Origin: an uncultured Gemmatimonadales bacterium
GTDB lineage: Bacteria; Gemmatimonadota; Gemmatimonadetes; Gemmatimonadales; GWC2-71-9
Length of the DNA: 64,000 bases
Direction of reading: 5' to 3'
NCBI GenBank assembly: GCA_963798915.1
Contig: CAWCVB010000014.1
Span: 3,565 to 67,564, forward strand
Shown: positions 2,919-57,386 of the stretch, one piece after another
Layout of the letters: each line of letters opens with the position of its first letter
Numbering within the stretch: the first letter of the stretch is position 1
Notes under the pieces: generated by a model
Database searches by the model: none
Told to the model about the DNA's origin: nothing
What the model saw: the letters and a program-made list of their open reading frames with translations, nothing else
Position numbers and translations under genes: made by a program

Positions 2919-4955
<2,037 letters not shown>

Positions 4956-5336: not shown

Positions 5337-5488
5337 GGGTCGCGGGTCGCGGGTCGCGGGTCCCTGGTCGCGGGGAACGCTGGGCTGTCTCTCCGTCTCG
5401 CCGTCTCGCCGCCGCGCAGTCGCGCCGTCGAGCCGCCCATCCAGCCCATCTAGCCCATCCAGCCCGTCCCGCCCATCTTGCACCCATT
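5337..5488. repeat. Composite short-tandem-repeat block: (GGGTCGC)x3, (CGTCTCGC)x2, (CCCATCCAG)-type nonamers x5
   Basis: Read directly from the sequence. It fills nearly the whole divergent spacer between the DUF4286-like and M61 genes. Confidence 0.9.
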
Positions 5489-7420: not shown

Positions 7421-8974
7421 ATGAACCAGAAATACCGTATGGTCGGCTGGCTGTTCCTGCTCGGCCTGTCGCCTTCTGTTCTCTTGGCCCAGCGTGAGTC
7501 CCAAAGCGCAAAGCCGGATTCTGCTGCAGCGCATACGACCGCCGCCGATTCGCTCAAGCTGGCAGAGATCGCCAGCCGGCCCGCCGTCATCACGCATCAC
7601 AGCATGCAGCTGAACGGGAAGCGCCTCGACTACACAGCGACGACGGGCATGCTGGCGATCCGGGATGAGAAGACTGGTGCCTCCGAGGGGTACATGTTCT
7701 TCGTGGCATACACCCAGGATGGCGCGCCGGAGCGCGGCAAGCGGCCCATCACCTTTGTGTTCAATGGTGGGCCGGGGTCCTCCACGGTGTGGCTGCACAT
7801 GGGGGCGTTCGGGCCCAGGCGAGTCAAGCTGCTGCCGAGCGGCGAGGCACCCCCGCCGCCCTACTCCTATGAAGACAATCCCTACACCCTGCTGGACCAG
7901 AGCGACCTGGTTTTTCTCGACCCGGTCGGCACCGGCTACAGCAGGCCGGCCAATCCGAAGCTCGGATCGAAGTTCTGGGGGGTCAACGAGGACATTGCGT
8001 CGGTTGGTGAATTCATCCGATCGTATCTCACGACCTACGAACGGTGGGCCTCACCCAAGTTCCTCGCCGGTGAGAGCTACGGCACCACGCGTGCCGCTGG
8101 CCTGACGGGATACCTCGCGGATCAGGGCATCGCCTTCAACGGCATCACCCTGATCTCGACGATTCTCGACTTCGGTCTCGATGAGGGTGACAACGCGGCC
8201 ATCTATTACCTCCCGTCCTACGCCGCGATTGCGTGGTACCATAAGCGACTCCCGCCGGATCTGCAGGCGATGACATTGGCGCAGGTCACCGACAGGGCCG
8301 AGCGCTGGGCGGGAACCTCGTACCGGCTCGCCCTGGCCAGAGGCTACGAGCTGAACGACGCGGAGCGGCGGGTCGTGGTGGATACGCTGGCCCGATTTAC
8401 CGGACTGTCCCCGACCATCGTGGACCAGAACAACCTGCGGATTTCGCTGGGGCTGTTTGACACCGAACTGCTGCGGGAGCAACGGTTGACGGTGGGCCGT
8501 CTCGACGGTCGCTTCACCGCCTTCAGCATGAACAACGCCTCACAGCGGCCGGCGTTTGACCCCAGCATGTCGAATATTCGTCTCTCCTACACTCCCGTGC
8601 TGAATGATTACGTGCGGCGCGAGCTCAACTATCACGACGATATGCGGTACTACATCCTGGGCGGCGGGGTGGATCGTTGGAGCCCGCAGCACGAAGGCGG
8701 CCCCACGGACGTGACCCCGTCCCTGGAAGCCGCCTATGCCCAGAACCCGCACATGAAACTCTTCGTGGCGATGGGCTATTACGACACGGCGACGCCCTAC
8801 TATGCGGTGGAATACACCTTGTCGCATCTGGCGATCGGGCCCCAGGCACGCAGCAACATTACGACTGCCTACTACGCTGCCGGCCACATGATGTACATCG
8901 ATGACGCTTCCATGAAACAATTCCGGGCGGACCTGGGGACCTGGATGGGTGGGGCGCTGAGCGCCCAGCGCTGA
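7421..8974 (+). CDS. Secreted serine carboxypeptidase, peptidase S10 family
   Basis: Signal peptide (LFLLGLSPSVLLAQ). Motifs NGGPGSSTVWLHMG and the catalytic-serine motif AGESYGT. Confidence 0.8.
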   Translation: MNQKYRMVGWLFLLGLSPSVLLAQRESQSAKPDSAAAHTTAADSLKLAEIASRPAVITHHSMQLNGKRLDYTATTGMLAIRDEKTGASEGYMFFVAYTQDGAPERGKRPITFVFNGGPGSSTVWLHMGAFGPRRVKLLPSGEAPPPPYSYEDNPYTLLDQSDLVFLDPVGTGYSRPANPKLGSKFWGVNEDIASVGEFIRSYLTTYERWASPKFLAGESYGTTRAAGLTGYLADQGIAFNGITLISTILDFGLDEGDNAAIYYLPSYAAIAWYHKRLPPDLQAMTLAQVTDRAERWAGTSYRLALARGYELNDAERRVVVDTLARFTGLSPTIVDQNNLRISLGLFDTELLREQRLTVGRLDGRFTAFSMNNASQRPAFDPSMSNIRLSYTPVLNDYVRRELNYHDDMRYYILGGGVDRWSPQHEGGPTDVTPSLEAAYAQNPHMKLFVAMGYYDTATPYYAVEYTLSHLAIGPQARSNITTAYYAAGHMMYIDDASMKQFRADLGTWMGGALSAQR

Positions 8975-12033: not shown

Positions 12034-13299
12034 ATGCGGAAATTCCGCCCATTCATCTGCCTGCTCGCGATCACGCTCATGACCGCCCCGCTCGGGGCGC
12101 AGTCTGCCACCCTGCTGAAGCCCGCTGCGGTGTATGACGGAATGAGTGATGGCCTGCACCCCGGCTGGGCGGTCCTGGTCGCCGGGGACTCGATCGCACA
12201 GGTGGGGCCGGCAAGCGAGCTGGCCGCGGGCGCTGCTCAGGTGGTGGAGCTTCCTGGCCTCACGCTGATGCCGGGAATGATTGAGGGGCATTCGCACCTC
12301 CTGTTGCACCCGTACAACGAGGCACCGTGGGACGTGCAGGTCCTCTACGAACCGCTGGCGCTGCGTATCGCCCGCGCCACCGTGGCGGCGAAGCGGACGC
12401 TGGATGCAGGCATCACCACGACCCGTGACCTGGGCACCGAGGGCGCGGGCTACGCCGATGTCGGTCTCCGCGATGCCGTGCGCCAAGGCATCATTCCCGG
12501 CCCGCGCATCCTGGCCACCACGCGAGCCATCGTGGTAACCGGCAGTTATGGGCCGCGCGGAGCGCCGGAGCGCGACATGGCCTTCGGGGCACAGGAAGCG
12601 GACGGCGTAGACGGCCTCACCCGCGTCGTGCGCGAGCAGATCGGCAAGGGGGCGGACTGGGTGAAGCTGTACGGAGACTATGGCTGGGGTCCCGGTGGCA
12701 CGGTGCAGCCCACGTTCACGGAGGCAGAACTGAAGCTTGCCGTGGAGGTGGCCGCAAGCTCCGGCCGCTTCGTTGTGGTCCACTCCAGCAGTGCAGAGGG
12801 CATGACGCGAGCGGCCCGGGCGGGGGCGCGGACCATCGAGCATGGCGACCACGGCACGGCGGAAGCCTTCAAGCTGATGGCCGAACGGCACGTGGGTTAC
12901 TGCCCCACGCTGGCCGCCACCGAAGCGGTGGCATCCTACCGGGGATGGAAGAAGGGCACCGGGCCCGCGCCCGGCTCGGTCCAGGAGAAGCACCGGAGCT
13001 TCAAGGCGGCGCTGGCCGCCGGCGTGGCCATCTGTTTCGGCGGGGATGTGGGCGTTTTCTCCCATGGGGACAACGTGCGCGAAGCCGAGCTGATGGTGGA
13101 GTACGGCATGACTCCTGCCGCCGCGCTGCACGCGACGACCGCTGGAAACGCCGACATATTCGGGCTGGCCGACCGCGGCCGCATCAAGGCGGGCCTGCTG
13201 GCCGACCTCGTCGCCGTCGAGGGCGACCCGACCCGGGACATCAGCGCCCTCAGGCAGGTCAGGTTTGTGATGCAGGGCGGGCGGGTGGAGCGACGATAG
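12034..13299 (+). CDS. Periplasmic amidohydrolase-family enzyme
   Basis: Start at ATG 12034 after a GGAGGA SD. Signal peptide [15 protein letters not shown]. Motifs GHSHLL (HxH), VKLYGD, VVHSS, IEHGDH, FGGDVG. Confidence 0.75.
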
Positions 13300-13468
13300 G
13301 GCAGGGCGGGCGTGACGGGCAGGGCGGGCGTGACGGGCGGGAACTCAGGCACGCTCTGTCATTGCTTCGACGCGCCTGCGGCGCGTCTCGCAATGACAGT
13401 ACGGGTTTAGCTTCGCTCGCCAACTCGCCAACTCGCCAACTCGCCAACTCGCCAACTCGCCAATTCGC
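13299..13468. repeat. Composite repeat block: (GGGCAGGGCGGGCGTGAC)x2, long hairpin, (CTCGCCAA)x6.5
   Basis: 18-mers at 13299 and 13317. Hairpin CTGTCATTGC...GCAATGACAG at 13356-13399. Octamer array at 13416-13468. Confidence 0.9.
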
Positions 13469-13508
13469 CGTCTGGCCCTCCAGCCGCCGAGGCCCCTATC
13501 TTCGATCA

Positions 13509-14263: not shown

Positions 14264-15265
14264 ATGACACACCTGCCGGCCGGCGCCCCCGCGCGTCCCG
14301 ATCCCCATCTCCCGGTGCACCCGCGGAATCCGGGCATGCCCCTGGAGCTCGAGTGGGTGCAGGATGTGCGCATCAACCGCAGCGCGGTGGAGCGGCGCGC
14401 CGCATCATTGGGCACCCGGCGGACGGTCAAGAAACAGTGGCAGGCCGCCTGGCTGCTCCGCGCAGTCACCCTGATGGACCTGACCACGCTTTCGGGTGAC
14501 GACACCCCGGGCCGGGTCCGTCGGCTCTGTGCCAAGGGACGTGCACCGGTCCGGGTCGACCTGCTGGACATGCTGGGCGCCACGCAGCTGCCCATCCGGG
14601 TGGCCGCCATCTGTGTCTATCACGCCATGGTCGAGACCGCCGTCGAGGCACTGGCCGGGTCCGGGATTCCTGTCGCGGCGGTATCCACCGGGTTTCCGGC
14701 TGGCCTTTCGCCCTTCAGCCAGCGCCTGGAGGAGATTGGCGCCTCGGTCGAGGCAGGGGCGGAAGAAATCGATGTCGTCATTACCCGCGCGCATGTGCTG
14801 ACCGGCAACTGGTCCGCGCTCTATGATGAGGTGCGCGCCTTTCGCGCAGCCTGCGGCGATGCCCATATCAAGACGATTCTCGCCACCGGCGAACTCGGTA
14901 CCCTCCGGAATGTCGCGCGCGCGAGCCTGGTGTGCATGATGGCAGGCGCCGATTTCATCAAGACCAGCACGGGCAAGGAGGGCACCAATGCGACGCTGCC
15001 GGTCGGCCTGGTCATGGTGCGGCAGATCCGCGAATATCTGGATCGGACGGGCTACCGGGTCGGATTCAAGCCGGCCGGTGGTATCCGCAGTGCCAAGGAT
15101 TCACTCGTCTGGCTTGGCATGATGAAGGAGGAACTGGGCGACGCCTGGCTCCGGCCCGAGCTCTTCCGCTTTGGCGCCAGCAGCCTGCTGACCGATATCG
15201 AGCGGCAGCTGGAATATTTCGCCACCGGCCGCTACTCGGCCGATTACCGCCACCCACTGGGCTGA
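14264..15265 (+). CDS. deoC: Deoxyribose-phosphate aldolase (long form)
   Basis: LMDLTTLSGDDT, EIDVVI and FIKTSTGK (Schiff-base Lys) motifs. Confidence 0.85.
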   Translation: MTHLPAGAPARPDPHLPVHPRNPGMPLELEWVQDVRINRSAVERRAASLGTRRTVKKQWQAAWLLRAVTLMDLTTLSGDDTPGRVRRLCAKGRAPVRVDLLDMLGATQLPIRVAAICVYHAMVETAVEALAGSGIPVAAVSTGFPAGLSPFSQRLEEIGASVEAGAEEIDVVITRAHVLTGNWSALYDEVRAFRAACGDAHIKTILATGELGTLRNVARASLVCMMAGADFIKTSTGKEGTNATLPVGLVMVRQIREYLDRTGYRVGFKPAGGIRSAKDSLVWLGMMKEELGDAWLRPELFRFGASSLLTDIERQLEYFATGRYSADYRHPLG

Positions 15266-15267
15266 GC

Positions 15268-17688
15268 ATGTCATCCATCGGCGAAATTTTCGAAACCATG
15301 GAATACGGGCCGGCTCCGGAAGCGGCAGCGCCCGCGCTGGAATGGATCGCGGCGCATGGGAAGGGCCTCGGCCATTTCATCAACGGCAAGTGGACTGCCG
15401 CCGGCGAATCGTTCGCGTCGGTCAACCCGGCCACGGGCAAGCCGCTTGCCCGCGTGGCCCAGGGGAGCACCAGGGACGTGAATGCGGCCGTGCGGGCCGC
15501 GCGTGCCGCACAACCGGCCTGGGAAGGGCTGGGTGGCCATGGACGCGCCCGGCACCTCTATGCGCTGGCGCGCCAGATCCAGAAGCAGGCTCGACTCTTT
15601 GCCGTGATGGAATCGCTCGACAACGGCAAGCCGATCCGCGAATCGCGCGATATCGACATTCCCCTGGTGGCCCGACACTTCTACCACCATGCCGGCTGGG
15701 CGCAGCTCATGGAACGCGAGCTGCCTGATTCGGCTCCGGTGGGAGTGGTGGGCCAGATCATACCGTGGAATTTCCCGCTGCTGATGCTTGCGTGGAAGAT
15801 TGCGCCAGCGCTCGCCATGGGGAACACGGTGGTGCTCAAGCCGGCGGAGTTCACGTCGCTCACCGCCCTGCTGTTCGCTGAAATTGCCTCGCAGGCCGGG
15901 CTGCCCCCCGGGGTGCTCAACATCGTCACGGGCGATGGCCGGACCGGCGAGGCGCTCGTGGCGCATAAGGACGTGGACAAGATCGCCTTCACCGGTTCAA
16001 CCGAAGTCGGGCGGCTGATCCGGGTTGCCACGGCGGGTAGCGGCAAGCGGCTCTCGCTCGAACTTGGCGGCAAGAGTCCCTTCATTGTCTTCGACGACGC
16101 CGACCTGGACAGTGTGGTGGAGGGCGTCGTGGACGCCATCTGGTTCAACCAGGGGCAGGTCTGCTGCGCCGGCTCGCGCATTCTGGTCCAGGAAGGCGTT
16201 GCCGCGCGGCTGGTGCAGAAGCTGCGCGCGCGCATGGAGATGCTTCGGGTGGGCGACCCGCTCGACAAGGCAGTGGACATCGGCGCCATCATTGCGCCGG
16301 TGCAACTGGAGAAGATCACCCAGCTGGTGCAGCAGGGGCGCGACGAGGGGGCCACCGTGTGGCAACCATCGTGGAGCTGCCCGACCGAAGGCTATTTCTT
16401 TCCGCCCACGCTGTTCACCGATGTGTCGCCTTCGGCCACCGTGGCGCAGGTCGAGATCTTCGGCCCTGTGGTGGTGCTGATGACGTTCCGCACCCCAGAT
16501 GAAGCCGTTGAACTGGCTAACAACACCCGGTACGGACTTGCGGCGAGCGTCTGGACTGAAAGCGTCAACCTTGCTCTCGACATCGCGCCCCGGCTCGCTG
16601 CCGGTACCGTGTGGGTCAACTGCACCAACGTGTTTGACGCGGCGGCGGGATTTGGCGGCTACCGCGAGAGCGGATTCGGGCGCGAAGGCGGACGCGAGGG
16701 GCTCATGGAGTACGTGCAGCCGCGGTGGGAGGTGGCAGGCGGGAAGTCGGGAAGACGGGACGTCAGACGGGAAGACGGGAAGGCGGGAAGACGAGAGAGC
16801 GTCAAAGGCGCGCGCATCCCGACCTCCCGTCTTCCCGCCTTCCCGCCCATTGACCGCACCGCCAAGCTCTATATCGGTGGCAAGCAGGTCCGGGCCGATG
16901 GCGGGTACAGCGATCTGGTGCGCGGTGCCGGGGGGCAGCCCGCGGGTGAAGTGGCACGCGGGAATCGCAAGGACATCCGCAATGCCGTTGAAGCGGCGCG
17001 AAAGGCCCGGGGCTGGACCACGGCCACGGCCCACAACCGGGCACAGGTGCTGTACTATGTCGCCGAGAACCTGTGGGAGCGCACTGACGAGTTTGCGGGC
17101 CGGCTGGCCCTGGCGTCCGGGGACACGATAGCGGCGCGCGCTGAAGTCGAGCTGAGCCTCCAACGTCTCTACACCTACGCCGCATGGGCCGACAAGTGGG
17201 ACGGCCATGTTCACCAGACTCCCTACCGCAACGTCACTCTGGCCATGCCCGAGGCCCTGGGGGTGGTCGGCATCAGCTGCGCGGACGACATGCCGCTGCT
17301 TGGCTTCATCTCGACTGTCTCACCCGCCATCGCCATGGGCAACCGGGTCATCGTCCTTCCCTCCGAGGTATGGCCGCTCGCGGCCACCGACCTGTACCAG
17401 GTGCTCGAAACCTCGGACGTACCGGCTGGTGTCGTGAACATCATCACCGGTCCGCACGCGGAATTGCGCCCGGTGCTGGCGGCGCACGACGACGTTGACG
17501 GGATGTGGCACTTCGGCTCGCGTGAGGGTGCCGAGGAAGTGGAGCGGCTCTCGGCTGGCAACATGAAGCGCACGTGGGTGGGGTACGGCCGGACTCGCGA
17601 CTGGCGCGACCCGGTCCAGGGTGAGGGCGTCGAGTTCCTCGAACACGCCACCCAGATCAAGAATATCTGGGTGCCCTACGGCGAATAA
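15268..17688 (+). CDS. Aldehyde dehydrogenase fused in frame to a second, truncated ALDH-like module
   Basis: Module 1 (to about 16730) has IPWNFP, LELGGKSP and NQGQVCCAGSR. Module 2 (about 16850 to the end) begins IDRTAKLYIGGK, is ALDH-like, and lacks the ELGG and Cys motifs. There is no stop and no in-frame ATG/GTG/TTG between the modules. Confidence 0.8.
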   Translation: MSSIGEIFETMEYGPAPEAAAPALEWIAAHGKGLGHFINGKWTAAGESFASVNPATGKPLARVAQGSTRDVNAAVRAARAAQPAWEGLGGHGRARHLYALARQIQKQARLFAVMESLDNGKPIRESRDIDIPLVARHFYHHAGWAQLMERELPDSAPVGVVGQIIPWNFPLLMLAWKIAPALAMGNTVVLKPAEFTSLTALLFAEIASQAGLPPGVLNIVTGDGRTGEALVAHKDVDKIAFTGSTEVGRLIRVATAGSGKRLSLELGGKSPFIVFDDADLDSVVEGVVDAIWFNQGQVCCAGSRILVQEGVAARLVQKLRARMEMLRVGDPLDKAVDIGAIIAPVQLEKITQLVQQGRDEGATVWQPSWSCPTEGYFFPPTLFTDVSPSATVAQVEIFGPVVVLMTFRTPDEAVELANNTRYGLAASVWTESVNLALDIAPRLAAGTVWVNCTNVFDAAAGFGGYRESGFGREGGREGLMEYVQPRWEVAGGKSGRRDVRREDGKAGRRESVKGARIPTSRLPAFPPIDRTAKLYIGGKQVRADGGYSDLVRGAGGQPAGEVARGNRKDIRNAVEAARKARGWTTATAHNRAQVLYYVAENLWERTDEFAGRLALASGDTIAARAEVELSLQRLYTYAAWADKWDGHVHQTPYRNVTLAMPEALGVVGISCADDMPLLGFISTVSPAIAMGNRVIVLPSEVWPLAATDLYQVLETSDVPAGVVNIITGPHAELRPVLAAHDDVDGMWHFGSREGAEEVERLSAGNMKRTWVGYGRTRDWRDPVQGEGVEFLEHATQIKNIWVPYGE
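16741..16847. repeat. Octamer-array inverted repeat (GGGAAGNC)n embedded in the ALDH linker
   Basis: gggaagtc gggaagac ... gggaagac gggaaggc gggaagac, then inverted cgtcttcccgccttcccg. A perfect 18-bp stem pairs 16776-16793 with 16828-16845. Confidence 0.9.
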
Positions 17689-17838
17689 ATGGTCGAATAC
17701 ATCACGCTGAATGCGTCGGCGGCCAGGCAGGTGATGGGCCACTGGGTGGCTCAGGTCAATCCGACCATCGCCGCGATGGTCGGCGCCGGGTTGCTACTGG
17801 CCTGGCTGGTGTGGCGAGCTTTTGTGGTGCGGCGATGA
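17689..17838 (+). CDS. Possible 49-aa single-pass membrane peptide
   Basis: The ATG overlaps the ALDH stop (TAAATG). Sequence: MVEYITLNASAARQVMGHWVAQVNPTIAAMVGAGLLLAWLVWRAFVVRR, with one hydrophobic helix. It is below the ORF-track size cutoff. Confidence 0.3.
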   Translation: MVEYITLNASAARQVMGHWVAQVNPTIAAMVGAGLLLAWLVWRAFVVRR

Positions 17839-17848
17839 CGGCCCGCGG

Positions 17849-17876
17849 GTAGGGGCGGCCCGCGGGCCGCCCCTAC
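17849..17876. terminator. Perfect 28-nt palindrome GTAGGGGCGGCCCGCGGGCCGCCCCTAC between convergent genes
   Basis: The sequence is self-complementary. It lies between the ALDH/small-ORF end and the phoU end. There is no U-tract, and it belongs to the REP-like family also seen at 57.2 kb. Confidence 0.6.
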
Positions 17877-17882
17877 CCGCCC

Positions 17883-18560
17883 CTACTCGCGCCCCTCCGC
17901 ATGATGCTTGATTGACTTGCCCTCCACCAGGAACACCACATCTTCGCCAATGTTGGTGGCAAGATCGGCCACCCGCTCGAGATTCCGGCTCACCAGCACC
18001 AGCTCCATGCCGACGCCGATGGTGTGCGGGTCTTCCATCATGTGGGTGAGCAGGATCCGGAACACCGAGCGGTGCAGCGCGTCCACCTTGTCGTCGCGAA
18101 TACAGACTTCACGGCCGGTCTTCGCATCGCTCCGGATGAAGGCCTCCAGCGCGTCCGAGAGCATCTCGCGCGCGATGCGCGCCATTTCGACCAACTCCGG
18201 CTCCGGCGTGATCGGTCGACCCTTGAGCAGCCGTTCGGTGCTCTGTGCAATGTTCACCGCATGGTCGCCTACGCGCTCGAGGTCATTGGCGATCTTGAGG
18301 GCCGAGGTGATCATCCGGAGATCGCGTGCCATGGGCTGCTGCAGTGCCAGCAGCTGAATGCACTGTTCCTCGATCTCCATCTCCATGTCATCGATCTGGC
18401 GGTCCCCGCTGACGACCTCCGCGGCCTTGGCGGCGTCGCGCTGGAGCAGTGCGTCCAGGGCCAGCGCCAGCGCGGCCTCGGCCTCCCCCGACATGGTCAG
18501 CAGGCGGACCTTGAGATGGCTCAGCTCATCGTGGAAATGGCGATGTGCGTCCGTGGTCAT
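17883..18560 (-). CDS. phoU: Phosphate-transport system regulator PhoU
   Basis: 225 aa with a duplicated helical repeat, each half carrying a ...LERVGDHA / LERVADLA motif. Confidence 0.9.
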
Positions 18561-19399
18561 CCGAATCTCCCGGTGATATACGCTTCGGTCCGCTCGTGTG
18601 CCGGTGCGGTAAAGAGCTGGTCCGTGGGTCCGTACTCGATAAGCCGGCCGTCGTCGAGGAAGGCGGTTGCGTCCGACACTCGCGCGGCCTGCTGCATGTT
18701 ATGGGTGACGATCACGATGGTGTACTCTCTTTTCAGTTCCACAATCAGCTCCTCCAGCCGCGCTGTCGAGATCGGGTCGAGCGCCGACGCCGGTTCGTCC
18801 ATGAGGAGCACGTGCGGCTGGTTGGCCAGGGCCCGCGCCACACAGAGCCGCTGCTGCTGCCCGCCGGAGAGGCTGGTGCCGGGCTCGTCCAGCCGGTCCT
18901 TGACCTCGTCCCAGAGCGCCGCCTTCCGGAGACACTGCTCCACCAGCTCCGGCATGTCCCGCCGGCCCGCGAGAGCGTTGATCGTCGGCCCGTAGGCCAC
19001 GTTCTCGAAGATGCTCTTCGGGAAGGGGTTGGGCCGCTGGAACACCATGCCGACCTGCAGGCGGAGCTCCACCAGGTCCACGTCCGGCGCAAACACCGAC
19101 CGGCCCTCCACCTTGATATCGCCCTCGTAGCGCGCACCCGGGATCAGGTCGTTGAGCCGGTTGATCGAGCGCAGGAAGGTACTCTTGCCGCAGCCTGACG
19201 GTCCGATGATGGCCGTAACGGCATTGCGCGCGATGCTGAACTCGAGTCCGTGCAAAGCTGAACGGGGTCCATAATGAAACTGGAAGTCGTGCACCGTCAC
19301 GGCGGCGGGCCCAGGCGTGGCTACCTCGCCGGCAACCCGCGGGGCCAGCGCTCCCTGCAGGTAGCCGGTCGGCCGCATCCCGGGCGTGGCGGCGTTCAT
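18557..19399 (-). CDS. pstB: Phosphate ABC transporter ATP-binding protein PstB (copy 2, N-terminal extension)
   Basis: [38 protein letters not shown] and C-terminal [10 protein letters not shown]. Confidence 0.9.
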
Positions 19400-20172
19400 C
19401 CGAACCGTCCGGTGATGTAGGCCTCGGTCTGCTGGTTGGCGGGCGTGGTGAACATCTGACGAGTCGGGCCCGATTCCACCATGGTGCCCAGGTAGAAGAA
19501 CGACGTGGTGTCACTGACCCGGGCGGCCTGCTGCAGGTTGTGGGTCACAATCACGATCGTGAACGCGTCCTTGAGGGCAAACAGCAGCTCCTCGATTCGC
19601 TGGGTTCCCTTGGGGTCGAGCGACGCGGTTGGCTCATCGAGCAGAATCACTTCCGGTTGCGGCGCAATGCTGCGGGCCAGACAGAGGCGCTGCTGCTGCC
19701 CACCGCTGAGCGCCGTGGCACTGGCCTTGAGCCGGTCCTTGACCTCGTCCCACAGCGCGGCCTGGCGCAGCGCCCGTTCGACGACCTCATCGAGCCGTCG
19801 CCCCCGCAGGCGTCCCACCTTGTTCTCGACCCGGAGCCCGGCCGCCACGTTGTCGTAGATCGACATGGTGGGAAACGGTGTGGGCTTCTGGAAGACCATG
19901 CCGACGCGGCGGCGGAGCTGCATCGCGTTGACACGGGGCTCGTAGATGTCCTCGCCGTCCAGCAGGACCCGCCCCGTGATCCAGCCGCCCTCGCTCAGCT
20001 CATGCATGCGATTGAGGGATCGCAGGAAGGTGGACTTGCCGCATCCCGACGGACCGATCAGCGCATGCACCTGGTTGGAGGGAAATCGCAGCGACACGCT
20101 CTTGACCGCGGTGAACTTGCCATACATGGCCGTGAGCCGGTCGGTCTCGATCCGCACACGCGCGTCAGCCAT
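19396..20172 (-). CDS. pstB: Phosphate ABC transporter ATP-binding protein PstB (copy 1)
   Basis: [38 protein letters not shown] and [10 protein letters not shown]. Start at ATG 20172 (MADARVRIE), overlapping the pstA stop. Confidence 0.9.
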
Positions 20173-21007
20173 GACTGCCGCCCCGGCGGATGGCAAGCCG
20201 CGCACCGATGCTGAGCAGCAGCACCACGAGGATGAGCACGAGGGCGGCCGCCCAGGCGTACTGATGCCATTGCTCGTAGGGGCCAGTCGCATATACGAAA
20301 ACCGACAGCGGAAGTGCCGCCATCGGCTCGTTGATGTTGGTCGTCAGGTACTGGCTGCCCAGCGCGGTGAACAGCAGCGGGGCGGTCTCGCCGGCGATGC
20401 GCGCGACGGACAGGAGACTGCCGGTGGCGATCCCGGGCAGCGTGGTACGGACCACGACCAGCAGGGCCGTGCGCCAGCGCGGATAGCCCAGTGCCAGCGC
20501 GGCTTCCCGCAGCGAATTGGGCACCAGCTTGATCATCTCTTCGGTGGTGCGCAGGACCATCGGGATCATCAGCAGGGCCAGCGCGACGCTCCCGGCCAGC
20601 GCCGAGAAATGCTTCTGGGTCGCAACAATCCAGGCCCAGGCAAACACCCCGATCACGATCGACGGCGTGCCGTTGAGGACGTCGGCGACGAACCGGGTGA
20701 GCCAGGTCAATCGGCTGCCGGGGTATTCGGCGCAGTAGATGCCGGCCATGATGCCGATCGGCAGCCCGATCAGCGACGCCGTCCCGACGATGATCAGCGT
20801 CCCGACGATGGCGTTGGCGACGCCGCCGCCCTGCTCACCAGCCGGCACCGGCATCCGGGTGAAGAAGTCCCAGCTCAGACTGCTGGCACCCTTGAGGAGC
20901 AGATTGAGCAGGATCAGCAGCAGTGGGAGCACGGCCACCAGTACGGCCACGGCCATGAGCGCCACCATTGCATTGCTGATCCAGCGTCGCCGGGTGCGCC
21001 GGTGCAT
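20165..21007 (-). CDS. pstA: Phosphate ABC transporter permease PstA
   Basis: 280-aa polytopic protein with an EAALALG-type EAA loop ([12 protein letters not shown]), in pst operon context. Confidence 0.9.
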
Positions 21008-22038: not shown

Positions 22039-22089
22039 GGGTCACGGGTCACCAGTCGACCCGCGACCCGTGACCCGTGACCCGTGACC
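22039..22089. repeat. Heptamer hairpin (GGGTCAC)x2 / (GTGACCC)x3 in the pstS-pstC spacer
   Basis: gggtcacgggtcacc agtc gacccgcgacccgtgacccgtgacccgtgacc. The arms are complementary heptamer arrays. Confidence 0.85.
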
Positions 22090-45967: not shown

Positions 45968-45995
45968 GAGCCGCCGAGCCGCCGAGCCGCCGAGC
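45968..45995. repeat. (GAGCCGCC)x3.5 octamer array
   Basis: Read directly from the sequence. It abuts the stop of the DUF445 gene. Confidence 0.85.
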
Positions 45996-47567: not shown

Positions 47568-47795
47568 GGAGGATGGGCGGGATGGGCGCGATGGGCAAGA
47601 CAGGACGGGCAAGATGGGCAGGATGGGCAGGATGGGCACGTGAGCTTGTCTGACCGTCACCCCCGCGAAAGCGGGGGTCCACAACTGGCCCGTGCCTGGC
47701 GATTCATTAGGGGTGAGTCCTCATGGATTCCCGCATGCGCGGGAATGACGATTCACAAGGCACCCGCCAATCTCGCCCATCCAGCCCATCCTGCC
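47568..47795. repeat. MITE-like composite: nonamer array (GGGCAGGAT-type x8), two hairpins, inverted nonamers
   Basis: Left array at 47568-47640. Hairpins CCCCCGC-GAAA-GCGGGGG (47660-47677) and ATTCCCGC-ATGC-GCGGGAAT (47727-47746). Right inverted block GCCCATCCAGCCCATCCTGCC (47775-47795). Confidence 0.8.
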
Positions 47796-53996: not shown

Positions 53997-54123
53997 GTCG
54001 TGGATATCAGCTCTTGGAGCGCTGTGTGTGACGCTGCAAGCATCGGCCGAACGATCCCGGTCGGGCTGCAAGGTTGCGTCGCACCCTTCGGGTGCTCGCG
54101 ATGACAGCGCGCGGTGGGCCCCT

Positions 54124-54299
54124 CGACCCTCGACCCACGCCCCATCATCCATGACCGTACGGGCGGAGCCATGGCTCCGCCCCGACGCGACCCACGACCC
54201 ACGACCCTCGACCCACGCCCCACGCCCCACGCCCCACGCCCCATCATGCATGACCGTACGGGCGGAGCCATGGCTCTGCCCCGACGCGACCCACGACCC
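54124..54299. repeat. Two copies of a REP-like unit (78 and 99 bp) with palindrome GGGCGGAGCCATGGCTCCGCCC flanked by CGACCCN/CGCCCCA heptamers
   Basis: Copy 1 is 54124-54200 and copy 2 is 54203-54299. The copies differ by three extra CCCCACG heptamers and two substitutions. The palindrome is at 54161-54182. Confidence 0.9.
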
Positions 54300-56507: not shown

Positions 56508-57203
56508 ATGGCGCCGCTCCGCATCCACATCGTGACGCTCTTTCCGGAGACGCTGGCGCCGTACCTGGCGGCCAGTATTCCAGGGCGGGCGGCACAAGCC
56601 GGGCTGGTGCAATTCCGGCTGGTGCAGTTGCGGGATTTTACCCACGACCGTCACCATACCGTGGACGATTATCCCTACGGCGGTGGCGCCGGGATGGTGC
56701 TCAAGCCGGAGCCGTTCTTCGAGGCAGTTGAGTCACTGGAGCTGCGGGGCGGCCCGGTAGTCCTCCTCTCGGCGCGGGGCCAGCGCTTCGGGCACGACGA
56801 TGCGGTACGATACGCGGTGGGCACTGATCTGACGCTCCTCTGCGGGCATTATAAGGATGTGGACCAGCGGGTGGCCGACGGCCTGGCCACCGAAGAGCGC
56901 TCCATTGGCGATTTCGTGCTCTCGGGCGGCGAGCCGGCGGCGCTCTGTGTAGTGGATGCCGTGGTCCGGCTGCTGCCCGGTGCCATGGGCGACCACGAAT
57001 CGGCGAGTTCCGATTCGCACTATGACGGACTGCTGAGCCCGCCCAGTTATACCCGGCCGCCGGAATATCGTGGCCAAGCGGTGCCGCAGGTGCTGCTATC
57101 CGGTGATCACGCGCGGATCGAGGCGTGGCGCCTGGCGGAATCGGAGCGGGTGACCCGGGAGCGCCGCCCGGATCTGTGGACGCGGCACGAATCGGAACCA
57201 TAG
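56508..57203 (+). CDS. trmD: tRNA (guanine37-N1)-methyltransferase TrmD
   Basis: IHIVTLFPE, DDYPYGGGAGMVL, GHYKDVDQRV, SIGDFVLSGGE. An alternative start at 56487 exists. Confidence 0.93.
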   Translation: MAPLRIHIVTLFPETLAPYLAASIPGRAAQAGLVQFRLVQLRDFTHDRHHTVDDYPYGGGAGMVLKPEPFFEAVESLELRGGPVVLLSARGQRFGHDDAVRYAVGTDLTLLCGHYKDVDQRVADGLATEERSIGDFVLSGGEPAALCVVDAVVRLLPGAMGDHESASSDSHYDGLLSPPSYTRPPEYRGQAVPQVLLSGDHARIEAWRLAESERVTRERRPDLWTRHESEP

Positions 57204-57333
57204 GGGCGGCCCGCGGGATCACGACGGAATATTTCGATGAGCGGCGATACCGTAGGGGCGGCCCGCGGGATCACGACGGGATAGCTCGATGAGTGGCGGA
57301 TACCGTAGGGGCGGCCCGCGGGCCGCCCTTACG
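57201..57333. repeat. 52-53-bp repeat x2.5 ending in palindrome GTAGGGGCGGCCCGCGGGCCGCCCTTAC
   Basis: TAGGGGCGGCCCGCGGG occurs at 57201, 57253 and 57306. The last copy is a near-perfect 28-nt palindrome, the same family as 17849-17876. The block starts on the trmD stop codon. Confidence 0.9.
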
Positions 57334-57386
57334 GGCCGCGGGTGAGCAATGATGCGCGTATGGGAATCAATTTTGGGGGGTGTACC

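Follow-up and report, generated by a model that had tools for sequence, protein, structure and literature searches.

Judged from its sequence, the open reading frame (ORF) at 15268-17688 of the window (the whole 64,000-nucleotide stretch of Gemmatimonadales DNA analysed here) is a single polypeptide and an ordinary bacterial ALDH16, neither a chimera nor a pseudogene. The two-module organization of this aldehyde dehydrogenase family is already known. What is unusual is the DNA encoding the linker between the two modules, which in a clade of soil bacteria is a hairpin of octamer arrays that is translated straight through. We know of no report of such a hairpin array in the ALDH16 family. The features discussed below are the following, with positions counted along the window:

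14264-15265, + strand: deoC (deoxyribose-phosphate aldolase; Pfam DeoC, E 5.3e-16), separated from the ALDH16 start by 2 nt
15268-17688, + strand: ALDH16-family aldehyde dehydrogenase ORF, 806 aa, by homology to PDB 6MVR; no internal stop
15268-16713, + strand: module 1, catalytic ALDH, aa 1-482 (Pfam Aldedh), with the conserved end anchor GFGREGGREGLMEY
16714-16848, + strand: interdomain linker, 45 codons, aa 483-527, VQPRWEVAGGKSGRRDVRREDGKAGRRESVKGARIPTSRLPAFPP, between flanking anchors conserved in 79/79 loci
16738-16800, + strand: 5′ purine-rich arm, an imperfect CGGGAAGA octamer array of ~6 units (Tandem Repeats Finder (TRF), repeat search, base composition)
16801-16816, + strand: hairpin loop or spacer, 16 nt (MFE and centroid structures)
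16817-16848, + strand: 3′ pyrimidine-rich arm, an inverted octamer array of TCCCGCCT/TCTTCCCG (TRF, arm pairs, perfect 18-bp stem)
16849-17685, + strand: module 2, Rossmann-like non-catalytic ALDH16 C-terminal domain, aa 528-806 (Pfam, 6MVR, AlphaFold/Foldseek)
17845-17880, no strand assigned: perfect 18+18 palindrome, 100% complementary, between the ALDH16 stop and the convergent phoU stop
17883-18560, - strand: phoU (PhoU Pfam match)

ALDH16 enzymes are defined by two modules, a complete ALDH and a C-terminal, non-catalytic Rossmann-like domain (PMC8160307, PMC12041015). Membership of the window ORF in this family is established by the collinear match of its residues 3-805 to residues 3-766 of Loktanella ALDH16 (PDB 6MVR; 989 bits, E 1.1e-296). 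Module 1 is a full Pfam Aldedh domain (E 1.8e-199; aa 44-486, covering profile positions 3-459 of 461), as the initial annotation of the 806-codon ORF had already concluded from the motifs ELGGKSP and GQVCCAG. Together with PWNFPL, these motifs align with those of 6MVR that hold Asn165, Glu261, and Cys295, named as the catalytic residues of bacterial ALDH16 (PMC12041015). Like the bacterial enzyme, the window protein keeps the Asn, Glu, and Cys motifs (PMC8160307, PMC12041015), and from these it is predicted to be catalytically competent. A second Aldedh match, within the last 280 aa, is partial and reaches only from profile position 12 to 234 of 461, which is the NAD-binding half, in agreement with the earlier description of an ALDH-like but non-catalytic second module of about that size. 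Module 2 also aligns with residues 499-766 of 6MVR (domain E 1.4e-87) and has at least 100 invariant columns among 16 homologues. The AlphaFold model, which starts 44 residues before the end of module 1 and includes the linker and all of module 2, gives module 2 a pLDDT of mostly 80-95, with 6MVU, 6MVS, and 6MVR as its best Foldseek matches; the low pLDDT of model residues 1-44 stems from their truncated context and is no evidence of disorder. A further trait of the ALDH16 family is a dimer imitating the tetramer of classical ALDHs. The arrangement of ALDH, linker, and Rossmann-like domain of ~270 aa is shared by the window protein, the Loktanella sp. enzyme (PDB 6MVR/6MVS/6MVT/6MVU), and human ALDH16A1. 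The window linker is however 45 aa long, compared with ~23 aa in Loktanella, and its coding DNA is a hairpin-forming octamer array. The exact 806-aa sequence has no record in public assemblies.

Both arms of this hairpin are tandem arrays. Over 16740-16793, Tandem Repeats Finder detects a period of 8 with 6.2 copies and 78% matches (unit CGGGAAGA), and over 16817-16847 the period is again 8, with 3.9 copies of TCCCGCCT, the inverse of the 5′ array. The inverted-repeat arm pairs include 27 nt at 93% and 22 nt at 95%, and the 18-bp stem previously proposed between 16776-16793 and 16828-16845 is perfect to the base. When folded as RNA, the segment 16725-16860 reaches -75.7 kcal/mol, against a mean of -54.3 (sd 4.2) for shuffled sequences (z -5.16), and none of 200 shuffles is as stable. 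With up to two mismatches, GGGAAGACGGGAAG occurs seven times in the window where 0.49 occurrences are expected, six of them inside the linker element, while the CGGGAAGA unit is found only in the linker within the 64 kb of genome at hand. The 5′ arm is nearly devoid of T (2 per 63 nt) and the 3′ arm, whose end coincides with the last linker codon, of A (1 per 32 nt), and for this reason the element is open in all three sense frames. The view that an intergenic-type repeat is translated in frame here, encoding most of the linker, is borne out by an ORF without any stop. Read in frame, the 8-nt unit yields a 24-nt (8-aa) periodicity, and the resulting peptide has a Gly/Arg/Lys/Asp-rich part followed by a Pro/Ser/Arg/Leu-rich part, with an AlphaFold pLDDT of 28-36.

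An Rfam scan of the whole window returned no family at the gathering threshold; below it, only generic miRNA-hairpin matches appear over 16730-16874, on both strands, and these miRNA-precursor matches simply reflect a generic long hairpin. Scanning 15000-18200 for consensus promoters and terminators gave no site. The 3′ arm is followed by CCCATTGACCGC rather than by a U-tract, so the element lacks the makings of an intrinsic (Rho-independent) terminator, and neither terminal inverted repeats (TIR) nor target-site duplications (TSD) are evident at it by inspection. As to the start codons from which module 2 might be made separately, the initial annotation saw none; this is correct between the array and module 2, but not immediately upstream of the array, where an ATG (16705) and two GTG codons (16714 and 16732) occur in frame. 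Separate expression of module 2 was nonetheless rejected, given that these codons precede the whole linker and that module 1 has no stop.

Which then is older, the fusion of the modules or the repeat between them? In all 79 related loci, drawn from at least eight phyla (among them Gemmatimonadota, Bacteroidota, Chloroflexota, Myxococcota, Acidobacteriota, and Proteobacteria), both modules lie in one frame without a stop. Their linkers range in length from 26 to 88 aa and defy alignment across phyla, and most are non-repetitive and unrelated in sequence. Strong linker hairpins (z < -3.4) are almost confined to the Gemmatimonadales, namely to loci L002, L004, L008, L011, L012, L014, L025, L026, L029, and L052 and the window, while z is near 0 in other phyla. 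The hairpin loci fall within a 13-taxon NJ clade of moderate support (bootstrap 53%, with subclades at 77% and 67%), the placement of the array-bearing loci L032, L044, L036, L015, and L029 in the tree being insecure. Contigs of 0.5-2.8 Mb, such as CAWHFW010000005.1, CAWCRS010000007.1, and CAWIXT010000006.1, supplied the loci. In three members of the clade (L003, L001, and L010) the hairpin is lost or degraded and module 2 is still conserved, which makes the hairpin dispensable. These comparisons establish that the two-module fusion is ancient and the hairpin clade-restricted. Since the fusion is older than the repeat, the element must have entered, or expanded within, a pre-existing linker.

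Within the Gemmatimonadales, the period of the linker arrays is exactly 8 in all cases, and the unit itself varies between species (CGGGAAGA, GGTCGGAC, GGGCGGAC, GGCGGGAC, AAGGCGGT, and others). Paired arms are made of the same unit or of units 1 nt apart. Perfect stems reach 32 bp, and near-perfect stems of 20-32 bp remain where the flanking protein has diverged by ~30%. The elements of the window and of its closest relative, L002, can be aligned, which suggests shared ancestry. In L002 the array is also present once more within module 2, where it replaces the same length of sequence, and this is best described as conversion-like copying. Analogous linker arrays are present in at least 12 further assemblies, and a heptamer hairpin in the ALDH16 linker of Roseilinea (L078) is regarded as an independent acquisition. 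Every array-bearing ALDH16 locus examined is in frame.

Dispersed intergenic relatives of the element exist, as do further in-frame cases. The 22-mer of the 3′ arm is found at 50 other metagenomic sites, none of them in ALDH16, and at 48 of these no coding ORF was found to run through the repeat, by a test that needs 50 codons or more both before and after it and leaves repeats near contig ends unscorable. A stop codon usually lies within 30 nt of an arm end, and many of the copies abut one. Eight copies come from one assembly and have related loops; outside that assembly the loops are unrelated. The genes flanking the intergenic copies are convergent in 6 cases, tandem in 11, and divergent in 2, which suggests a preference for 3′ ends, as a trend only (6 convergent vs. 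2 divergent). The two in-frame copies occupy the inter-domain region of Lon and an ABC ATPase. A similar dispersal within the window's own genome may be extrapolated from these taxonomically unassigned metagenomes. In the window, arrays with units of 7-9 nt lie at the gene boundaries 5337-5477, 13299-13469, 22039-22089, 45968-45995, 47570-47795, and 54118-54299, often with inverted partners, and the spacers between co-directional genes run from stop to G-rich array, loop, C-rich array, and start. With a period of 8 in both arms and similar arrays at these boundaries, the likeness of the linker DNA to true intergenic spacers claimed at the outset is real. A search of the literature on Gemmatimonadota repeats, hairpins, or REP found no description of such array hairpins.

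How does such an element come to lie inside a gene? It is on balance probable that a hairpin repeat of the post-stop type, self-homogenizing and free of stops, is being tolerated in the disordered linker of ALDH16. The linker element would belong to a class that usually starts at or beside stop codons and forms an intergenic hairpin in these genomes. As the hypervariable, disordered linker would tether the ALDH to the C-terminal pseudo-Rossmann domain, a translated repeat could serve as a simple flexible tether, its stop-free composition permitting translation and selection on module 2 holding the total element length at a multiple of three. Were the element renewed through slippage together with conversion, either arm-to-arm or ectopic, its unit would differ from one species to the next with the complementarity of the arms preserved. 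The element would then be a tolerated passenger without required function, and its arm pairing would be kept by a putative homogenization mechanism rather than by selection. Against homogenization stands the long-stem pattern, which selection acting on RNA or DNA structure would likewise produce.

Several known systems bear comparison with such a passenger. REP/BIME elements and the U-tract-less “I-shaped” terminators of high-GC bacteria are GC-rich post-stop hairpins, often located between convergent genes. The dispersed copies are likewise GC-rich hairpins just after stop codons, but they are built of octamer arrays, and the window copy is intragenic. Closer analogies may be drawn with the RPEs of Rickettsia and the STRRs of cyanobacteria. 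RPEs and other MITE-like repeats are inserted in frame in genes (PMC10969869). The element resembles them as a palindromic family whose dispersed copies are mostly non-coding but in some cases lie in frame at structurally permissive sites of unrelated, conserved proteins (ALDH16, Lon, and the ABC ATPase). An RPE is however one unique sequence of 100-150 bp, whereas the window element consists of tandem 8-nt units that vary between species and loci, belongs to another phylum, and shows neither a conserved element sequence or peptide nor transposon-like ends (no recognized TIR/TSD). STRRs are intergenic, hairpin-capable heptamer arrays, also present between co-transcribed genes, for which roles in transcript stability or translational coupling were proposed (PMC2670836). 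The arrays described here differ from these cyanobacterial intergenic heptamers in their period (8 in the linker, 7-9 elsewhere), in their hosts (Gemmatimonadota and Chloroflexota), and in that the window copy is translated. Intragenic Borg repeats reportedly have unit lengths divisible by three; they are direct only, unlike the window array with its 8-nt unit and paired inverted copy. Borg tandem repeats create intrinsically disordered protein regions (PMC9879509), and to that extent the window array resembles them as a fast-evolving tandem repeat translated into a low-complexity, disordered segment.

Could the hairpin instead have been selected as a cis-acting element, either a structure in the mRNA by which the ribosome is slowed after completing module 1 or an intragenic terminator or attenuator? 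This is unlikely, though it deserves serious consideration. A pause, which the initial annotation had suggested for ribosome or RNAP, would let module 1 fold or dimerise ahead of the emergence of module 2; an attenuator would be masked under transcription-translation coupling and act as a polarity sensor. The hairpin falls precisely on the boundary between the domains, with the 3′ arm ending near the linker end in clade members, and at -75.7 kcal/mol (z -5.2) its fold is highly stable, yet it is missing from the ALDH16 of every other phylum examined, and L003, L001, and L010 keep module 2 conserved with the hairpin lost or degraded. The intergenic relatives do occupy terminator-like positions beside stop codons, but the linker element lacks a U-tract, and the scan of 15000-18200 called no terminator-like site. 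Paired arms are kept across the clade despite the changing unit; the near-identity of the tandem units, however, points to recent turnover rather than to an old conserved structure, and unrelated proteins, too, tolerate in-frame members of the repeat family. A broader proposal, in which a selected pause site or attenuator is part of a wider, undescribed system of self-homogenizing gene-end hairpins with 7-9-nt arrays in Gemmatimonadota and some Chloroflexota, co-optable inside genes, is quite doubtful.

Phase variation, by which the gain or loss of 8 nt would switch between the full ALDH16 and an ALDH-only product, is very improbable. Eight is not divisible by three, and a simulated 8-nt loss creates a TGA at 16849-16851, right after the 3′ arm, leaving a 525-aa module-1 protein; an 8-nt gain, however, adds a junk tail of ~130 aa. 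The ATT-GAY pair from which the out-of-frame TGA arises occurs in 5/15 hairpin loci vs. 3/32 other high-GC loci, raw counts that are too weak as support. Moreover, the array-bearing loci are all in frame, no frameshifted locus was seen, and the window array is imperfect (78% matches), which implies a lower slippage rate.

The initial annotation put forward, as one reading, two adjacent genes welded by a stop-free repeat that had inserted or expanded in their spacer, the element having the same layout as the co-directional spacers of the window. It proposed to compare orthologous loci, where a fused protein with an unrelated, non-repetitive linker would speak against welding; the comparison gives one gene in 79/79 loci of at least eight phyla, mostly with just such linkers, the crystallised single-chain ALDH16 (PDB 6MVR) has the same architecture, and the hairpin is restricted to a derived clade, so that this origin is hardly credible. 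Even less weight can be given to an assembly artefact or a pseudogene: repeats and hairpins are prone to misassembly, but the independent assembly L002 has an alignable element at the same position, at least 12 others have analogues, the reading frame is unbroken, and the conservation of module 2 is strong.

The tolerated repeat thus retained as the preferred reading brings to light a class of hairpins with tandem 7-9-nt units in Gemmatimonadota, and also in Chloroflexota, which lie beside stops and are now and then retained in frame in protein linkers. Its ALDH16 copy is a natural experiment: thanks to the strong conservation of the coding sequence on both sides, this copy can be traced across species, and one can ask whether the complementarity of the arms is kept by selection or by conversion.

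The neighbourhood of the gene is itself informative. The adjacency of deoC, already noticed, is confirmed by the Pfam match 2 nt upstream, and 67/73 related loci have a deoC homologue as the next gene upstream, in the same orientation. ALDH16 probably acts together with the DeoC encoded there, and this pairing offers a testable physiological role for bacterial ALDH16. On the downstream side, the palindrome at 17845-17880 is likely the true 3′-end hairpin of the ALDH16 gene.

The open reading frame at 15268-17688 (plus strand) runs through 806 codons without a stop, and joins a catalytic aldehyde dehydrogenase (module 1, 15268-16713) to a non-catalytic, Rossmann-like C-terminal domain (module 2, 16849-17685) by way of a linker (16714-16848). 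Residues 44-486 form a complete Aldedh domain (Pfam, E 1.8e-199), while the last 280 give a second, partial Aldedh match that is limited to profile positions 12-234 of 461. The whole ORF is collinear with the chain of PDB 6MVR (aa 3-805 against 3-766, E 1.1e-296), and module 2 searched alone matches residues 499-766 of 6MVR/6MVU ("aldehyde dehydrogenase", 767 aa). These structures are of the bacterial ALDH16 of Loktanella sp., which keeps Asn165, Glu261 and Cys295 and has hexanal as a substrate (PMC8160307; PMC12041015). When the ORF is aligned to 6MVR, motifs matching these three segments are found as well. An AlphaFold model of aa 440-806 predicts module 2 confidently (pLDDT mostly 80-95) and the linker at pLDDT ~30, and its top structural matches are 6MVU, 6MVS and 6MVR. 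Judging from the 6MVR homology, the motifs and the model matches, the two-module layout is a trait of the already known ALDH16 family.

The initial annotation had proposed that two genes were welded here by a stop-free repeat, a reading that the relatives contradict. With each species represented by a single genome, at least 596 genomes proved to encode a relative of module 2, and the best 80 of these loci come from Gemmatimonadota, Bacteroidota, Chloroflexota, Myxococcota, Acidobacteriota and Proteobacteria. In every one of the 79 loci of this set with upstream DNA, the anchors GFGREGG.EG..EY (end of module 1) and IDRT.KLYIGG (start of module 2) lie in one frame with no intervening stop. Across these 79 loci the linker measures 26-88 aa and its sequence is unalignable between phyla; for the majority of phyla, its DNA shows no gain in folding stability over shuffled sequence. 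In 67 of 73 loci, from at least eight phyla, the gene directly 5' of ALDH16 and in the same orientation is deoC (14264-17688 for the pair in the window), and this conservation suggests that ALDH16 oxidises the aldehyde released by deoxyribose-phosphate aldolase.

What is peculiar to the window is the linker DNA, whose element (16738-16848) consists of a purine-rich 5' arm (2 T in 63 nt), a loop and a pyrimidine-rich 3' arm (1 A in 32 nt). Tandem Repeats Finder bears out the octamer array between the modules, imperfect as it is (16740-16793, CGGGAAGA, 6.2 copies, 78% matches), along with the inverse array downstream (16817-16847). The perfect 18-bp stem described for 16776-16793 and 16828-16845 is exact, and a repeat search pairs the arms over 27 nt at 93% and 22 nt at 95%. 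The CGGGAAGA unit has seven matches in the window against 0.49 expected, six of them inside the element, the only place of enrichment. Folded as RNA, 16725-16860 reaches -75.7 kcal/mol against -54.3 ± 4.2 for shuffles (z -5.16), with 0 of 200 shuffles equally stable. The element is open in all three sense frames, and its translation would require only a total length that is a multiple of three. The statement that module 2 lacks any start was inexact: in-frame ATG 16705, GTG 16714 and GTG 16732 lie just 5' of the array. The likeness to intergenic spacers holds, since gene boundaries of the window bear arrays of 7-9-nt units, often with inverted partners:

5337-5477, gene-boundary array
13299-13469, gene-boundary array
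22039-22089, gene-boundary array
45968-45995, gene-boundary array
47570-47795, gene-boundary array
54118-54299, gene-boundary array

Each locus has its own unit (GGGTCGC, GTCTCGCC, GCCCATCCA, CTCGCCAA, GGGTCAC, GGATGGGCA, CGACCCA). As a rule the G-rich array precedes the C-rich one; several begin at a stop codon, and in some the arrays enclose small hairpins at the centre.

Among the relatives, linkers with z below -3.4 occur almost exclusively in Gemmatimonadales, namely in the window (-4.3), its close relative L002 (the closest that shares its unit), and L004, L008, L011, L012, L014, L025, L026, L029 and L052, the most extreme value being -9.1. In each of these strongly structured linkers an 8-nt array is separated from its inverted counterpart by 20-60 nt, with perfect stems of up to 32 bp, and every Gemmatimonadales linker array has a period of exactly 8. 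The units vary by species (CGGGAAGA, GGTCGGAC, GGGCGGAC, GGCGGGAC, AAGGCGGT, GGGCGGTC, GCGGGACA and others), and within one species the arms carry identical units or units 1 nt apart. In a neighbour-joining tree the hairpin loci fall in a single 13-taxon clade (bootstrap 53%; subclades 77% and 67%), inside which the hairpin is gone in L003 and degraded in L001 and L010. An AT-rich heptamer hairpin, unrelated to the octamer element, occupies the ALDH16 linker of Roseilinea (Chloroflexota, L078; z -5.7), which implies that the linker is a permissive site, there colonised independently. The elements of the window and L002 can be aligned with each other, and L002 carries a second copy of the array, CCGGGAAGACGGGAAGGCGGGAAGTCCGGAAGTC, within module 2 (4270-4304), replacing a variable loop without change of length (GSREDGKAGSPEVD versus LASGDTIAARAEVE in the window); this looks like conversion-type copying. 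Another structured insert, a strong non-array hairpin (CCAAGCCACGCCGCG...CGCGTGTGGCTTGG, z -5.0), lies in a Pseudomonadota ALDH16 linker (L075:3911-4000).

The octamer hairpin is a dispersed family, since one assembly holds eight copies with related loops on separate contigs. The 22-mer of the 3' arm, CCCGTCTTCCCGNCTTCCCGCC, occurs in 50 metagenomic stretches, never in an ALDH16 gene (0/50). Most hairpin-forming copies among them follow a recurring order: stop, G-rich array, loop, C-rich array, and finally either the following gene or the stop of a convergent one. The first stop codon often overlaps the first unit. A flanking stop falls no more than about 30 nt from an arm end in 13 of the 22 upstream cases and in 15 of the 19 convergent ones. 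Flanking genes are convergent at six copies, tandem at 11 and divergent at two; a tRNA stands directly 5' of one copy. No coding ORF running through the repeat was found at 48 of the 50 stretches, a read-through call needing 50 or more codons with a GC3 signature on each side of the repeat, and repeats near contig ends being unscorable. The other two, GGGAAGAC-type arrays, are in frame in genuine genes, an ABC ATPase (contig L110) and a Lon protease (contig L122), in the latter between the LON_substr_bdg and AAA domains. The layout of stop, array, hairpin and inverted array, which the window's own boundary arrays share, recurs at L037:8190-8350, L078:1001-1101 and 3896-4000, L072:4843-4913 and L007:2340-2430, that is, in Chloroflexia with AT-rich heptamers and, in other Gemmatimonadales, in the deoC-aldh16 spacer and after the aldh16 stop. 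The Chloroflexia locus L037 reads TAG, (AATTACC)9, terminator hairpin, (CGTAATT)4, and in L072 the first GTAGGACG unit includes the TAG stop.

On balance we favour an origin in which a self-homogenising hairpin repeat of the post-stop type entered, or expanded in, a linker already free of constraint; selection on module 2 would keep it open, and its sole role would be that of a tether. Several observations fit this reading: the hairpin is lost within the clade and absent from other phyla, the tandem units are near-identical, implying recent turnover, L002 has a copy that resembles conversion, and other proteins carry the repeat in frame. That selection instead maintains the hairpin, to cause pausing or attenuation where the two domains meet, seems rather unlikely; this would predict the retention of long stems despite ~30% protein divergence, as is seen, and concerted evolution is not separable from it on these data. 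Phase variation through 8-nt slippage is possible in principle, a simulated loss of one unit bringing a stop right after the element, but none of the loci examined is frameshifted and the codon-pair test is weak.

The closest known DNA features are the Rickettsia palindromic elements, inserted in frame in genes (PMC10969869), and the cyanobacterial STRRs, intergenic heptamer arrays that form hairpins (PMC2670836). The linker element differs from both in its octamer-array build, its species-specific units with co-varying arms, its phylum and the long time for which it has stayed at a single orthologous position in coding sequence. Literature searched by phylum and repeat type yielded no description of such arrays in Gemmatimonadota.

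Downstream, ALDH16 faces the following genes:

17883-18560, minus strand, phoU (Pfam PhoU)
18557-19399, minus strand, putative pstB-like ORF (ABC-ATPase motifs)
19396-20292, minus strand, putative pstB-like ORF (ABC-ATPase motifs)

The three (17883-20292) would make up a phosphate-transport cluster oriented towards ALDH16, the Pfam check covering phoU only. A second repeat family is represented at 17845-17880, where the perfect palindrome GCGGGTAGGGGCGGCCCG|CGGGCCGCCCCTACCCGC separates the stop of ALDH16 from that of the convergent phoU. Its core recurs at 57198-57334, where 2.5 copies of a 52-nt tandem repeat span 57193-57322, and in metagenomic contig L109 (~7560-7600), which bears the octamer family too. 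A further 49-nt tandem repeat (2703-2918, 4.4 copies, 98% matches), with the palindrome GGGCGGTCTGAGACCGCCC, is found between two minus-strand genes.
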